A DNA stretch of 64,000 bases from Candidatus Sysuimicrobium tengchongense (GTDB lineage Bacteria; Sysuimicrobiota; Sysuimicrobiia; Sysuimicrobiales; Sysuimicrobiaceae). Position numbers and translations under genes: made by a program. The stretch's first letter is position 1. Each line of letters starts with the position of its first letter. The stretch is taken from assembly GCA_031460175.1 (NCBI GenBank), contig JAVKGW010000001.1:403021-467020 (forward strand), read 5' to 3'. Shown one piece after another: positions 12,869-20,840 of this stretch. The notes under the pieces are model-generated. The model saw only the letters and a program-made list of their open reading frames with translations, was not told the origin of the DNA and ran no database searches.

Positions 12869-13899
12869 TCAGTACAGTTCCCGCCGGAGGCGGTCCGCGA
12901 GGATCCATCGATCCCCGGCCCGCCGGACCATTCCCATGCGCTCGAACCTCCCCAGCCACCTGTTCACGCTCTCCCGGGTGGCCCCGATGAGGTGGGCGAG
13001 TTCCGTCTGGGAGAGCCGGGGGCAGAGCACGGTACCGTCATCTTGCCGCTCTCCCTGCTCGACCCCTAGCCGGAGCAGGATCCGCACCAGGCGCCCCCGC
13101 ACGTCGAGGAACGCGGCGTCGCGCACCTGCAGGTCGGCAGCCTGAAGCCGCTGGCCCAGCAGGTGGATCAAGCGCAGGGCGACCTCGGGTCGCTGCCGGA
13201 GCCAGCCGACCAGATCCTCGCGGGCTACGAACAGCACCACGCAGTCGTCCTGCGCCACGCCGTCCGCCGAGCGCACTCCGCCATCGAGCACGGGGACTTC
13301 TCCCACGACCTCGCCCGGGCCCAGCAAGGCCAGGGTCCGCTCCCTTCCGTCCGTGGAGGTGAAGCCCACCCTCACCCGTCCCCGCTCCACGAGGTAGACG
13401 CCGGTGGCGGGGTCGCCCTCCCGGAAGATCACCTCGCCCCGGTGGTACAGCCGCCGCCGCACCGCGCCCGCCAAGGGGGCCAGTTCCGCTGCGGTATACC
13501 CGGCGAACAGCGGCAGGCGCGCCAGCTCGGGCTCCCCGGCCGTACCGGGCGGGGCGGCCTTGACCGGTCCCGCCTCGTGCGGCTCCTGCTGGTGCGCGTT
13601 CTGCAGCCCGAAGACCGCCAGCATCCCCTCCCCCAGGAGGTTTGACACCGGGACGCCGCACCGTTCCACGACCCGACGCGCGAGGTCGTAGAACTGCCCC
13701 AGGAGCCCGCGCCCGTCTTCCGGCTCACCGGCGGCCTTGCCGGTGTTGCGGTCGGCGAGCACCACGGTGACCACGCTGTGACTGGAGGCGGACGTCCCGG
13801 CCAGCGTCCGGGCGGTCCCGCAGTAGGGACAGAACTTCGCGCCGGCGGGAACCAGCAGCCGCTGACAGGTCAGGCAGACCCTCGCCTTCCTCCTCATCC
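12869..13899 (-). CDS. CRP/FNR-family regulator with N-terminal zinc ribbon + truncated nucleotidyl-cyclase-like segment
   Basis: Start taken at the internal ATG (MRRKARVCLTCQ...). The domains are CxxC...CPYC, then VTVVLADRNTG...GEGMLAVFG (resembling class III cyclase beta1..beta3), then a cNMP-binding beta-barrel and a C-terminal CRP HTH (RLSQTELAHLIGATRESVNRWL). Confidence 0.75.
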
Positions 13900-13987: not shown

Positions 13988-14003
13988 TGTGACGCAGTTC
14001 ACC
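13988..14003. promoter_or_regulatory. CRP/FNR-type box TGTGA-N6-TCACc
   Basis: tgtgacgcagttcacc lies in the 189-bp divergent intergenic region between the CRP-family gene (minus) and the ABM gene (plus). Confidence 0.4.
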
Positions 14004-14088: not shown

Positions 14089-14355
14089 ATGGCCGTCATG
14101 GTGACCGCCGACGTTCCGGGTCAAACCCAGGAAGGGTACGAGGAGACCATCCGGCTCCTCGGCCGCGCCCTCCGGGAGGCTCCGGGCTTCATCATGCACT
14201 TCGGCTACCCCATCGAGGGCGGCTGGCGCGTGGTGGAGGTCTGGGAGTCGTCGAAGGACGCCGCAGAGTGGTTCGCCCGCCACGTCCGCCCCAATCTCCC
14301 TGCGGACCTCCAGCCCCAGCGTCGGGTGCAGGAGCTCCACACCCTCATCCGATGA
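14089..14355 (+). CDS. ABM/Dabb-type small monooxygenase-like protein
   Basis: 88 aa with a ferredoxin-like fold signature and an AGGAGGAAG Shine-Dalgarno. Confidence 0.6.
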   Translation: MAVMVTADVPGQTQEGYEETIRLLGRALREAPGFIMHFGYPIEGGWRVVEVWESSKDAAEWFARHVRPNLPADLQPQRRVQELHTLIR

Positions 14356-14525
14356 TGCGCCGGACGGACAAGTCTCGGTCGAGGGCCGGCAACGCCACCC
14401 GCCCCGTGGTCTGGACAACGATCATCATGATAAGCGACATGGGGTAGTCGCCTCACCGGCTGACGTGCTCCCCTGGGGGCATTCTGGGGAGGAAAGTCGA
14501 GACCTATTGTAAAGGAGAGACCTCT

Positions 14526-15245
14526 ATGCTTGAGTGGCAAACTCGACGGGATACCGTGGCACTCGCCATCGCTGGTGCCATCCTCACGCTGGTCCTCAAT
14601 GCGCTACATCCGCACCCGAGCGACCCCACGCCTGAGGCGTTCTTGCGCCTGGTGGCGGCGCACCCCTACTGGGTCACGCTCCACCTGGGGCTCAGCCTGG
14701 GGATTCTACTCATCGTGGGCGCGCTGGCGGGCCTCACGGACGCCCTGCGGGAGACGCCTGGCGCGCGCCTAGCGCGCTTCGGCCTTCTGACTGTGCTGTT
14801 GGGCGCCTCTCTGTTTCTGGTCAACTTCGCCATCGACGGGATCGCTATGCAGGGCATTGCCCGCGCGTGGACCGGGGCTGCGCCAGCCGAGCAGGTAACA
14901 GCCTTGCGGATCGCCGACGCGCTTGACCGCGCGAACTTCGGCCTCTACACGTTTGAGACCATGCTGCTGCCGGGGCTGCCTTTCGTCCTGTACGGGCTCG
15001 CGGTCGTACGCAGTGGCAGCTATCCGAGGCTGCTGGGCTGGGTCGGTGTCCTAGGCGGCAGCGTGTCCTTGGCCGCCGGACTGCTGCAGGCGTACACCGG
15101 TCGCTCACCGCTGGCCAGCGTACTCTTCGTGGGCGGCTCGATGCTGGTCACGCTGTGGATGCTGATGCTCGGAGTCGCGATGTGGCGCCTCGCGGGGCGA
15201 TCATCCACCGCAGTTGAACCGGCGGCGCTTGTTGGGCCAGGATGA
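14526..15245 (+). CDS. DUF4386-like integral membrane protein
   Basis: 239 aa with 6 TM helices, an AAAGGAGAG Shine-Dalgarno, and codon usage much less GC3-biased than its neighbours. Confidence 0.6.
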   Translation: MLEWQTRRDTVALAIAGAILTLVLNALHPHPSDPTPEAFLRLVAAHPYWVTLHLGLSLGILLIVGALAGLTDALRETPGARLARFGLLTVLLGASLFLVNFAIDGIAMQGIARAWTGAAPAEQVTALRIADALDRANFGLYTFETMLLPGLPFVLYGLAVVRSGSYPRLLGWVGVLGGSVSLAAGLLQAYTGRSPLASVLFVGGSMLVTLWMLMLGVAMWRLAGRSSTAVEPAALVGPG

Positions 15246-15323
15246 CAATGACCCCCGGCTTCTCGACCGCACCGTTAGGCCACGGGCGGATCGTAGGGTC
15301 ATCTGGTGTGAGGGAGCTGCGAC

Positions 15324-15875
15324 ATGGCACAGATCGGACAGGAGATCGTCAACCCCCGGACCGGGCAACGCGTCCGGTTCGTCGAAACGGCGGATGCGTC
15401 CGGCGGTGCGCGGCTCGTCCTCGAGTGCGTGAGCCCGCCCAGCGCGGAACGGGAGCCCGAGCATGTCCACCCCTACCAGACCAATCGGTTCGCGGTGCGT
15501 CGCGGCGCGCTCCGTTTTCGCATTGCCGGTCTGGAGCGCGTCGTGGCCGCCGGCGAGGAAGTGAGCATCCCGCCGGACACGCCGCACCATTTCTGGGTCG
15601 AGGGCAGCGAGCCCGCCGAATACCGGCAGGAATTCGAGCCGGCCCTGAACACGGAAAGCTTCTTCGAGGCCCTCTTCGGCCTCGCCCAGGCCGGGCGGTT
15701 GAGCCGCAGCGGGATGCCGCCGGTCCTGCTCCTCGGCGTGTTCGGACAGAGGTTCTGGCCGACCGTGCGCCTCACGCGGCCCCCGAGTTGGGTCCAGCGG
15801 TTCACGTTTGCCGTGCTGGGGCCGCTCGGCCGGTTGCTCGGCCAGCGCTTGCCCTCGGCTCGGGATAACGGGTGA
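15324..15875 (+). CDS. Cupin-domain protein
   Basis: Cupin motifs (HVHPYQTNRFAV...G..V.IPPDTPHHF) in a 183-aa protein. Confidence 0.65.
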   Translation: MAQIGQEIVNPRTGQRVRFVETADASGGARLVLECVSPPSAEREPEHVHPYQTNRFAVRRGALRFRIAGLERVVAAGEEVSIPPDTPHHFWVEGSEPAEYRQEFEPALNTESFFEALFGLAQAGRLSRSGMPPVLLLGVFGQRFWPTVRLTRPPSWVQRFTFAVLGPLGRLLGQRLPSARDNG

Positions 15876-15973
15876 AGTGCGGAACTGAGGCACCCGTTCG
15901 AACGGGGCGAACCGCGGCCTGAAAAGCATTAGGTGGCGCCGGACAAGGGGAACCTCGGCCAAAGGAGCCTGTC

Positions 15974-16489
15974 ATGGACCAATCGCAGACGGCAGCCACG
16001 TTCCACTGGGCAACGCCACTCGGGGTGAGTGTGATTTGCTTTCTGGTGTCGGGAGTTGTCCATCTCTTGATCGGGATCCTCACGCCGATCTTCGTCAACT
16101 CACAATTCGGACGTAGCGCCATCTTCATCTCGCAGCGAACCGACAGCCAGCTCTTCCGGGCAGCGCCATCCGACCTGCTCGACAGGAACAAGGAGCTGGC
16201 GACGTTCCGCACGCTCTTCTTGACCAACGCGGGCGGGTCCCTGGTCATCATTGGCCTCTTCATCGTGTCCCTCGCATGGTTCGGCCTTCGCCAGCACCAG
16301 GTGTGGGCGTTCGTAACCCTCGTTCTGGCGGGACTGGTCGTTCTCCCCTACTGGTTTCTCGTTTTCAAGCCCTACCTGAACGCGGGCATCTCCATTCGGT
16401 TCGCCGACCTTCCGCCGATCTTTTGGATACCAACTCTCGTCCTGCTCCCGGGGATCATCTTCGGTTGGCTCGGCCTGCGCTCCTCTTGA
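15974..16489 (+). CDS. Hypothetical 4-TM membrane protein
   Basis: 171 aa with an AAAGGAGCC Shine-Dalgarno and atypically low GC. Confidence 0.5.
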   Translation: MDQSQTAATFHWATPLGVSVICFLVSGVVHLLIGILTPIFVNSQFGRSAIFISQRTDSQLFRAAPSDLLDRNKELATFRTLFLTNAGGSLVIIGLFIVSLAWFGLRQHQVWAFVTLVLAGLVVLPYWFLVFKPYLNAGISIRFADLPPIFWIPTLVLLPGIIFGWLGLRSS

Positions 16490-16753
16490 GCCACATTGAC
16501 CGGCAAGGCGAACTGGCGGGTGAAGCGCAGTGAGTACGAGCATCACAAAACCGGGCCAGGCGGAGTGGAGCACCGTCTTCTACCAGGGCATCCACGCCCC
16601 CTACCTGCACAGCGGCGACCGGCGCAGCGAGCAGGCTACCGTCCGGCCTAGGCGGGGAAGTGCGGCCGTTCACACCGTGGCCGTGACCGGTTTTATATCC
16701 ACCGGCCGGCCCGCACAGTACCCTGAAGGAACGCCGCCGTAGAGGAGGTCACG

Positions 16754-17182
16754 GTGCCGTCTCGGGACGAACAGGCCATCTACCGGGAGGTCGAGGCGTT
16801 CTCCCGTGCGTGGAACGCCGCGGACGCCGACACCCTCGCCGCCTTCTTCACCGAGGACGCGGTTCGGGTGGGTGCGTTCGGGGACGTCCAGCACGGCCGC
16901 GGGCAAATCGCCGCGGCCTTCCGACACCTCCTGCAGGAGCGCATGGCGGGGGCCACCGTCCAGCAGGAACAGGGGACGGTACGCATGCTCTCCCCAGAGA
17001 TCGCCGTCTGGCAAGGCGGGATCCAGATCCGCCTCCCCGGGGGGACGCTGCTTCAGGGACACGCGGTCCAGGTCATGAGACGGGTGGGCGACCGCTGGCT
17101 CATCGTGGAAGCCCACCCCAAGCTCTTCCCGACAGCCCCGGAGGTGCCGGGGCCGTCTTTCACTCCGCACGAGCGGGCCTGA
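16754..17182 (+). CDS. NTF2-like / SgcJ-EcaC (DUF4440) family protein
   Basis: 142 aa with family motifs (AIYREVEAFSRAWNAADADTLAAFFTEDAV...HGRGQIAAAF...DRWLIVEAH). GTG start with a GAGGAGG Shine-Dalgarno. Confidence 0.65.
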   Translation: MPSRDEQAIYREVEAFSRAWNAADADTLAAFFTEDAVRVGAFGDVQHGRGQIAAAFRHLLQERMAGATVQQEQGTVRMLSPEIAVWQGGIQIRLPGGTLLQGHAVQVMRRVGDRWLIVEAHPKLFPTAPEVPGPSFTPHERA

Positions 17183-17204
17183 CGACAGAGAGGAGAGAAG
17201 CGCG

Positions 17205-17621
17205 ATGAGCGATGCGACGGGCACCATGCGGGAGTACCTGGAAGCCGTCTCCCGCCGGGACTTCGAGGGAATCCGCCGGCTGCTCCACCCGAAGTACTCG
17301 TACGCGGGCTCCGACGGCCAGCGCCTGGACGGGCCCGAGGCGGGCGTCGCCGTGGCCCGGATGTACACGGCCGCGTTCCCCGACCTCACCTTGGACGTCA
17401 CCCGCATGCACGCCGTGGGCGACAGCGTGGTGGTCACGGAGTTCACCGCCCGCGGCACCCACCGAGGGGAGCTCATGGGCGTCGCGCCCACGGGGCGGAG
17501 GATCGAGGTCCCGGTGTGCAACGTGGTGGACGTGCAGGACGGCAAGATCCTCGCGGAGCGCGAGTACTTCGACACGGGACTCCTGCACCAGCAGCTCGGC
17601 CTGGCCGGCCGGACCGCGTAG
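17205..17621 (+). CDS. SnoaL-like ester/polyketide cyclase family protein
   Basis: 138 aa with family motifs (REYLEAVSRRDFEGIRRLLHP...EREYFDTGLL) and a GAGGAGAGAAG Shine-Dalgarno. Confidence 0.65.
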   Translation: MSDATGTMREYLEAVSRRDFEGIRRLLHPKYSYAGSDGQRLDGPEAGVAVARMYTAAFPDLTLDVTRMHAVGDSVVVTEFTARGTHRGELMGVAPTGRRIEVPVCNVVDVQDGKILAEREYFDTGLLHQQLGLAGRTA

Positions 17622-17966
17622 GAAGAGCCACCGGGAGGGCCGCACACGGGGGTGTGGGGTGACGCACTGGTCCTTGCTCCCAGAGCTGGCGAGACAGCGC
17701 ATGAGTCAGCAGCTCGCGGACGCGGAGGCCGCCCGCAGGGCCCGGCTGGCAGAAAGGGCCAGGCAGGGGAAAGGCGGGAACGGTCCGGGCCGGAGGGTGG
17801 CCGTGGCCGCGTGGGGTGCGGTGCTGGCGTGGGCGGCGCGGTTGGGCATGTCCTGGGCACGCTCGTCCGCGCTCTTCAGGGGGACGAAACCGAACTGAAG
17901 CCGGTGGATCAATTGGCGAGGGGAAGGAACCGACAGAACGCAAGACACAACACACGGGGGTGAGCG

Positions 17967-18590
17967 ATGGGTCAAGCAGCTCGCTGGCAAATCTCCGGCG
18001 AGTACTTCGAGAACTGCTCGTGCGACGTGGTCTGCCCCTGCGAGGTCTCGCCCCTGGGCTTCATGCAGGCGCGGCCGGACCAGGGCCACTGCAACGTGTA
18101 CCTGGTCTTCCACGTGAGGGAAGGGGCCTACGGCGGGACCCGGCTGGACGGGCTGAACGCCGTGGTCGCGATCCACGCCCCCGGTCCCATGGCGCAGGGG
18201 GACTGGACCGTGGCCGCCTACCTGGACGCCCGCGCCTCCGCCGCCCAGCAGGAGGCCCTGGGCGCCATCTTCTCCGGGAGCGCGGGAGGGCCCCTGAGCG
18301 CCGTCGTGCCCCTCATCACGAAGAACCTGGGGGCCAAGGTGGTGCCCATCGAGTACCGGAACGAGGGCCGCAAGCGCAGCGCCCGCATCGGCGGGATCCT
18401 GGAGGCCGTGGTGCAGGCGGTGCCCGGCGCGAACCCGGAGGAAGAAGTGGTGAAGCGCAACGTGCACCCCATGTTCCCGGAGCTCGTACAGGCCACCGGG
18501 TTGGTGAGCCGGTACACGGACCACGGCCTGCAGTGGGACCACATGGGCAAGAACGCGGACTACGCGGCCTTCCGGTGGACCGGGCCGTGA
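17967..18590 (+). CDS. DUF1326 domain protein
   Basis: N-terminal Cys cluster typical of DUF1326 (W.ISGEYFENCSCDVVCPCE) in a 207-aa protein. Confidence 0.7.
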   Translation: MGQAARWQISGEYFENCSCDVVCPCEVSPLGFMQARPDQGHCNVYLVFHVREGAYGGTRLDGLNAVVAIHAPGPMAQGDWTVAAYLDARASAAQQEALGAIFSGSAGGPLSAVVPLITKNLGAKVVPIEYRNEGRKRSARIGGILEAVVQAVPGANPEEEVVKRNVHPMFPELVQATGLVSRYTDHGLQWDHMGKNADYAAFRWTGP

Positions 18591-19306
18591 CCGAGAGCCC
18601 CGCGCTTCCGCAGGCCCGCAGAGCGATGGTCGCGGCGGTCCTCCTGATGGCCATCGCCGCCTGGGCGGTGGTGGTCCGGCAGGCCACCGGGGACGACCAA
18701 ATGGCCATGAGCCCCGCGGTGTTCCTCGGCAGCTGGACGACCATGATGTTGGCCATGATGCTCCCGTCCGCGCTCCCGGTGCTGCTCACCTTCGACCGGA
18801 TCCAGGCGGGCAGGCGGAAGCAGGGGGGGTCCGGCGTGCCCACCTGGGTCTTCCTCGTGGGGTACCTGGTGGTGTGGACCGCGTTCGGTGGTGTGGCCCT
18901 GGGAGTCCGGGAGTTGCTCGGAGCTGTGGGGGTCTCGCTCCACGGGCAGGGTGCCGCCGGCGTGCTTCTGGTCCTGGCTGGAGTCTACCAGTTCTCGCCC
19001 CTCAAGCACGCGTGTCTGGGGAAGTGCCGGAGTCCGCTCGGCTTCGTGCTCGGCTCCTGGCGGGACGGACGGCCGGGGGCCGTCCGCATGGGCCTGGAAC
19101 ACGGGATCTCGTGCCTCGGCTGCTGCTGGGCCCTTTTCTTGGTTCTGTTCCCCCTGGGGCTCATGAACCTGGCGGCCATGGCGGCCCTGACCGCCCTCGT
19201 CTTCGCCGAGAAGGTCCTGCCTGCCGGTCCGAAGCTCGCCCGCGCCACGGGGTCCGGGCTCGTTGCCTGGGGGCTTTTCACCCTGGCACGGGCGGGCTTC
19301 GTGTGA
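18587..19306 (+). CDS. DUF2182 family membrane protein (DUF1326 partner)
   Basis: GTGA overlap with the DUF1326 stop. Five or six TM helices and conserved Cys residues (SPLKHACLGKCRSP...CLGCCW). The start could instead be the ATG at ~18626. Confidence 0.65.
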   Translation: MTESPALPQARRAMVAAVLLMAIAAWAVVVRQATGDDQMAMSPAVFLGSWTTMMLAMMLPSALPVLLTFDRIQAGRRKQGGSGVPTWVFLVGYLVVWTAFGGVALGVRELLGAVGVSLHGQGAAGVLLVLAGVYQFSPLKHACLGKCRSPLGFVLGSWRDGRPGAVRMGLEHGISCLGCCWALFLVLFPLGLMNLAAMAALTALVFAEKVLPAGPKLARATGSGLVAWGLFTLARAGFV

Positions 19307-20327: not shown

Positions 20328-20840
20328 ATGGGGATCTACCCCGCGGACGCGTACGAGTACCTGGTGAAGGCCCGGGAGCGGCTGCTGGGCTGGGTGGGAG
20401 GACTGTCCCAGGAGCAGTACACGCAGGAGTTCCCCATCGGCCTGCGCAGCATCCGGGCCACCTTGGTGCACATGGCCAGCGCGGAGTGGGGATACGTGCG
20501 GCGCCTGCTGGGAGAACCCGTTCCGCCGCCACAGGAGCGGCCCTTCGCCCCGCACGCGCAGGGGACGTTTGCGCCCTTCGCGGAGGCGTGGGCCCGTCAG
20601 GCGGAGGAGACCCGCCGGGTCTTGCGCTCCATCGAGGACTGGAACCGGCCCGCGGAGTACGTCATCCCGCTGGGCGGGCGCCCGCGTCGCTACCGCACCA
20701 CCGCGGCTGGGATCGCCACCCAACTCCTGTTCCACGAGGTGCACCACCGGGCGCAAGTTATGGCCATGCTGCGGCAGCTGGGGATCCCCGCGGAGAACCT
20801 GGACTACTCCGTGCTCATGTTCGAGCCCGTGGAGGAATAA
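20328..20840 (+). CDS. DinB/YfiT-like (DinB_2) metal-dependent hydrolase family protein
   Basis: AAAGGGAGGG Shine-Dalgarno 8 nt before the ATG and the four-helix DinB signature (LVHMASAEWGY...HEVHHRAQV). Confidence 0.7.
   Translation: MGIYPADAYEYLVKARERLLGWVGGLSQEQYTQEFPIGLRSIRATLVHMASAEWGYVRRLLGEPVPPPQERPFAPHAQGTFAPFAEAWARQAEETRRVLRSIEDWNRPAEYVIPLGGRPRRYRTTAAGIATQLLFHEVHHRAQVMAMLRQLGIPAENLDYSVLMFEPVEE

Follow-up and report, generated by a model that had tools for sequence, protein, structure and literature searches.

The cluster lies at positions 14089-19306 of a 64-kb window (the whole 64,000-nt stretch of DNA that was analyzed) and comprises nine small, co-directional ORFs, g1-g9, arranged head-to-tail on the plus strand, as an earlier note had described; eight are solid and one, g7, is doubtful. 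The intergenic gaps from g1 through g5 are 170, 78, 98 and 264 nt, followed by 22 nt between g5 and g6, 37 nt between g6 and g7, and 68 nt between g7 and g8, with the g9 start overlapping the g8 stop by 4 nt. Strong Shine-Dalgarno sequences, which the note had assigned to every gene, precede g1-g6; those of g7-g9 are weak. Family assignments were made with Pfam and NCBIfam profile searches, and the labels proposed for g2, g3, g5, g6, g8 and g9 were supported by matches.

Divergent from the cluster is a minus-strand gene (12869-13897) for a 342-aa Crp/Fnr-family regulator with an N-terminal zinc ribbon, a linker, a cNMP-binding domain (Pfam cNMP_binding, E = 2.3e-24) and a Crp-type HTH (HTH_Crp_2, E = 1e-13). 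It had been called a cyclase/CRP hybrid, a label that is not supported: Pfam at E ≤ 1 and phmmer against PDB detected no cyclase domain, the zinc ribbon being the only feature N-terminal to the cNMP-binding domain. Every score against NCBIfam equivalogs was far below cut-off. The divergent intergenic region contains a near-consensus candidate Crp-type operator, TGTGACGCAGTTCACC (13988-14003), which is the sole match with one mismatch or fewer in the 64 kb. Its position is kept at three related loci, being identical in L090, perfect (TGTGACGCGGTTCACA) in L093/L094 and GGTGACCCGGTTCACC in L011, and regulator orthologues adjoin the operon divergently in L090, L093 and L011. The CRP box and divergent regulator that the note had linked occur together at all four loci. 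The domain pair and the conserved palindromic operator in a divergent promoter region are those of known Crp/Fnr-family systems with TGTGA-N6-TCACA operators, but the regulator here adds the zinc ribbon and a linker of ~100 residues.

The first gene 3' of the operator, g1 (14089-14355), encodes an 88-aa ABM-like protein whose match to Pfam ABM (E = 1.3e-3, 19.3 bits) is under the gathering threshold of 23.1, leaving that family label unsecured. L011 has a 43% homologue and L093 an ABM-like ORF of 85 aa, both downstream of DUF2182, and g1 is absent from L090. The DUF4386 membrane protein g2 (14526-15245; Pfam DUF4386, E = 2.5e-8) occupies a putatively horizontally acquired, accessory single-gene unit (14506-15247). 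This unit shares 93.9% nucleotide identity with L105 over a stretch bounded by RBS and stop, the flanks being unrelated, and a 93% copy of g2 lies near g3-g4 on the opposite strand in L108/L109. No g2 was found in L090, L093 or L011.

The following two-gene unit (15310-16484) consists of a cupin, g3 (15324-15875; Pfam Cupin_2, E = 1.3e-10), and g4 (15974-16489), which the note had described as a 4-TM protein and which is indeed a real, conserved four-helix membrane protein, although without a family match. The unit is 86-90% identical in nucleotide sequence to L096, L098 and L099 over a stretch running from RBS to stop, and L106-L114 and L118 hold additional copies (amino-acid identity of at least 87%). 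A homologous attC of ~100 nt, with R'' GCCTAAC and R' GTTAGGC (fold z -4.35), lies 3' of g4 in at least five loci (L096, L106, L107, L108 and L111). A covariance model built on 9 attC sites detected none in the window and many further ones in the g4-family arrays. Relatives of g4 reside in multi-attC arrays that also hold SnoaL, DUF4440, cupin and glyoxalase cassettes; in one case, L123, an IntI-like integron-integrase fragment is divergent from the array. In the window, a solitary GTTAGGC, identical to the R' core of these attC sites, was found on the plus strand at 15274-15280, 43 nt ahead of the start codon of g3; it is the only occurrence in the 64 kb and has no partner R'' and no hairpin. 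No integrase-like sequence was found in the 64 kb either. Because the window has neither attC nor integrase, its g2 and g3-g4 inserts are regarded as stranded cassettes, and the integron origin of its g3-g4 copy rests on comparison with the other copies. The g3-g4 pair found elsewhere, in which an attC of its own comes after the two ORFs, resembles integron cassettes and attC arrays that lack an integrase. The window copy differs in having lost the attC and in sitting, with no integrase, inside a regulated operon region, and would therefore no longer be integron-mobilizable.

The g4-g5 spacer (16490-16753) holds a 70-aa ORF remnant (16530-16742) and is a possible internal promoter region; it is common to the window and L090, where it is ~200 nt longer, and its 3' 110 nt, including an AT-rich patch, are conserved between the two. 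It has no Pfam or Rfam match and no significant structure. Next is g5 (16754-17182), an NTF2-like protein of the DUF4440 / SgcJ-EcaC type (Pfam DUF4440, E = 2.1e-13; TIGR02246, E = 1.7e-18), whose gene opens the conserved core operon; orthologues lie directly 5' of DUF1326 in L090 (92%), L093 (73%) and L011 (57%). The SnoaL-family NTF2-like g6 (17205-17621; Pfam SnoaL, E = 3.7e-27) has IdmH and SnoL as its best PDB relatives, with AclR also among the nearest solved structures. In L093 its orthologue forms a fusion with g5, in L090-L092 it carries an in-frame stop, and a different SnoaL_2 protein takes its place in L011. The 79-aa g7 (17659-17898) is doubtful as a genuine gene. It lies in a 308-nt segment between 12-nt direct repeats, CACACGGGGGTG (17643-17654 and 17951-17962), that is absent from L093 and L011; its composition is atypical (GC2 0.65, codon-usage z -3.0), its C-terminal frame is shifted relative to the closest relative, L090, by indels of 9 and 20 nt, and it has no Pfam or NCBIfam match.

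The last two genes are g8 (17967-18590), a DmdF-like DUF1326 protein (Pfam, E = 1.6e-52), and g9 (18587-19306), a DmdE-like membrane protein of the DUF2182 / PpoB2 family (PF09948, E = 1.2e-63; formerly DUF2182, now named PpoB2). The pair had been described as Cys-rich, and a CxCxxxCxC motif in g8 is indeed invariant across 25 DUF1326 homologues. DUF2182 adjoins DUF1326 in 72 of 80 species loci. Across these 80 other species, only DUF1326 and DUF2182 remain linked, and g1-g7 are absent from 79 of the loci.

A larger core, consisting of the regulator, the Crp box, g5, g6, g8 and g9, is shared by three related lineages from hot springs that probably belong to Ca. Sysuimicrobiota. In L093, the order is MBL1, MBL2, Crp(-), box, g5+g6, g8, g9 and the ABM-like ORF. 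In L011, it is Crp(-), box, a 113-aa gene, an FAD oxidase with a g5-like domain, SnoaL_2, g8, g9, a cupin fragment and ABM. L090-L092 have Crp(-), box, a truncated g4, g5, g6 with its stop, g8 and g9, with wholly different flanks. The g2-g4 genes are thus absent from L093, reduced to a g3 fragment in L011 and to the truncated g4 in L090. Since g4 is truncated and g6 interrupted in L090-L092, both appear to be dispensable partners of the DUF1326/DUF2182 pair, which weakens the case for a fixed multi-enzyme pathway. In each of three lineages (the window, L090, L011), g3/g4 remnants adjoin this operon, which could reflect a functional connection between cassette and operon as opposed to neutral carriage. 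Compared at four-fold sites, the window and L090 have an identity of 0.54 for the regulator and 0.72-0.87 for g5-g9; for the L011 cupin fragment it is 0.71 against a background of 0.40-0.57. We count these contrasts in favor of a mosaic history.

Composition agrees in part. A lower GC content and weaker GC3 bias had been reported at 14.4-16.5 kb, and the signal is real (GC 0.653 at 14400-16500 vs. 0.698 for the window), but the quoted 55-63% is overstated, as 300-nt segments reach as low as 0.60-0.62 only over g4 and the g1-g2 spacer. Against reference genes (GC3 0.878 ± 0.033, n = 42), GC3 is reduced in just two genes, g2 (0.796, z -2.5; codon-usage z -3.8) and g4 (0.797, z -2.5), and is normal in g3 (0.864); taken as units, g2 and g3-g4 are both atypical in GC3 and codon usage. 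The horizontal origin proposed for this segment finds much stronger support in the comparative data: both units are missing from L093 and L011 as such, both have copies of 86-94% nucleotide identity in unrelated contexts (local GC 0.58-0.69), and g3-g4 is an integron-type cassette elsewhere.

We therefore read the cluster as a mosaic of two layers with differing histories, and assign this reading as a whole, including an integron-derived g3-g4 that has lost its attC and become fixed in place, a probability of roughly 0.65. The first layer would be a lineage-conserved operon linked to the Crp/Fnr-family regulator, which lies divergently from the conserved TGTGA-N6-TCAC operator, with g5 and g6 followed by the translationally coupled g8-g9 pair and with g1 as an associated gene of variable position. 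The second would be accessory DNA placed between operator and operon, namely the g2 unit and the g3-g4 unit, which is a cassette with its own attC among hot-spring bacteria. The segment with g7 would be a separate small insertion that may contain no gene.

The view of the note, that all nine genes form one signal-controlled module for detoxification, modification or metal handling, transcribed from the Crp-box promoter, is improbable, although it is the strongest competitor. The genes are co-directional, g1-g6 have good ribosome-binding sites below a conserved operator, g3/g4 remnants recur beside the operon, and L108/L109 also combine g2 with g3-g4, at 8 kb from a PpoB2-like gene. Only g5, g6, g8, g9, the regulator and the position-variable ABM gene are conserved together, however, and that only within a narrow clade. 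The g2 (L105) and g3-g4 units each recur in numerous unrelated settings away from the rest of the cluster, and the 170- and 264-nt gaps suggest separate transcription units.

A less probable alternative is that the regulator linkage is incidental, the Crp-family protein regulating itself or the first gene only, with g5-g9 under a separate constitutive promoter. In the window, 2.7 kb lie between operator and g5, the conserved, AT-rich 3' part of the g4-g5 spacer could accommodate such a promoter, and each genome has a different gene immediately after the operator (ABM, truncated g4 or the 113-aa protein). Against this, the association of regulator, operator and operon persists at four loci despite the fully different flanks of L090, and only ~250 nt separate operator and g5 in L093. 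More doubtful still is a decayed integron array of unrelated passengers, stripped of attC sites and integrase, despite the cassette-typical families (cupin, SnoaL/DUF4440, ABM, membrane proteins) of these small co-directional genes, several of them seen in g4-relative arrays, and despite the genuine g3-g4 cassette elsewhere and the GTTAGGC core at the 5' edge of g3. Besides the missing attC and integrase, there is no plus-strand RYYYAAC motif in 13.8-19.5 kb, the cluster spacers are unstructured (z -0.3 to +1.25), and g5-g9 are spaced too tightly for attC and keep their order with the regulator in relatives. A secondary-metabolite sub-cluster with ABM, cupin and SnoaL as polyketide tailoring enzymes is very unlikely, notwithstanding the SnoaL polyketide cyclase family match and solved relatives of g6, since g6 scores 39 bits against a cut-off of 200 for the NCBIfam SnoaL methyl-ester-cyclase and is a pseudogene in L090-L092, and, in line with the note's own remark, no scaffold-building enzyme (PKS, NRPS or terpene) is present in the annotated neighborhood, which extends 8 kb upstream and 9 kb downstream.

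Under the mosaic reading, the regulator would bind its operator upon binding cyclic nucleotide or a similar ligand and then control rightward transcription, which must now traverse g1-g4 before g5-g9 unless a second promoter lies in the g4-g5 spacer. We infer this co-transcription and control from gene spacing and operator conservation alone.

By analogy with DmdEF and PpoB2, the most likely function would be to cope with redox or metal stress. DmdE (DUF2182) and DmdF (DUF1326) are always adjacent, purified DmdF consumes H2O2, and homologues outside Rhodobacterales are phylogenetically distinct and unlinked to DMSP genes (PMC12992908). In common with DmdE/DmdF of Ruegeria lacuscaerulensis, the window has these two Pfam families side by side, with apparent co-translation, as well as a Cys-rich DUF1326 partner and a nearby DinB-family gene (20328-20840), which is not conserved beside the pair in close relatives. 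It differs in the order (DUF1326 then DUF2182), in its NTF2-like and ABM partners, in its Crp-type regulator and in having no dmdA, acuI or DmdR. PpoB2 of Marinomonas mediterranea (COG5486) transfers copper to a tyrosinase (PMC2855505). Like it, g9 is a multi-pass membrane protein of that Pfam family with conserved Cys and Met motifs; unlike it, g9 has no linked tyrosinase or other recognizable copper enzyme and has a DUF1326 partner, which the source consulted does not describe for PpoB2. With no dmdA/acuI and no tyrosinase in the annotated neighborhood, neither literature function fits here. The DUF2182 protein would handle metal, as PpoB2 does copper, with the Cys-cluster DUF1326 protein as its cytoplasmic redox partner, like peroxide-consuming DmdF, and the NTF2-like, ABM and cupin proteins would be small cofactor-independent enzymes acting on a reactive small molecule. 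The cluster is thus an instructive case of a mosaic, yet one built mainly from known kinds of parts: an operon that centers on a poorly understood metal/redox gene pair and that appears to have acquired horizontally transferred gene cassettes.

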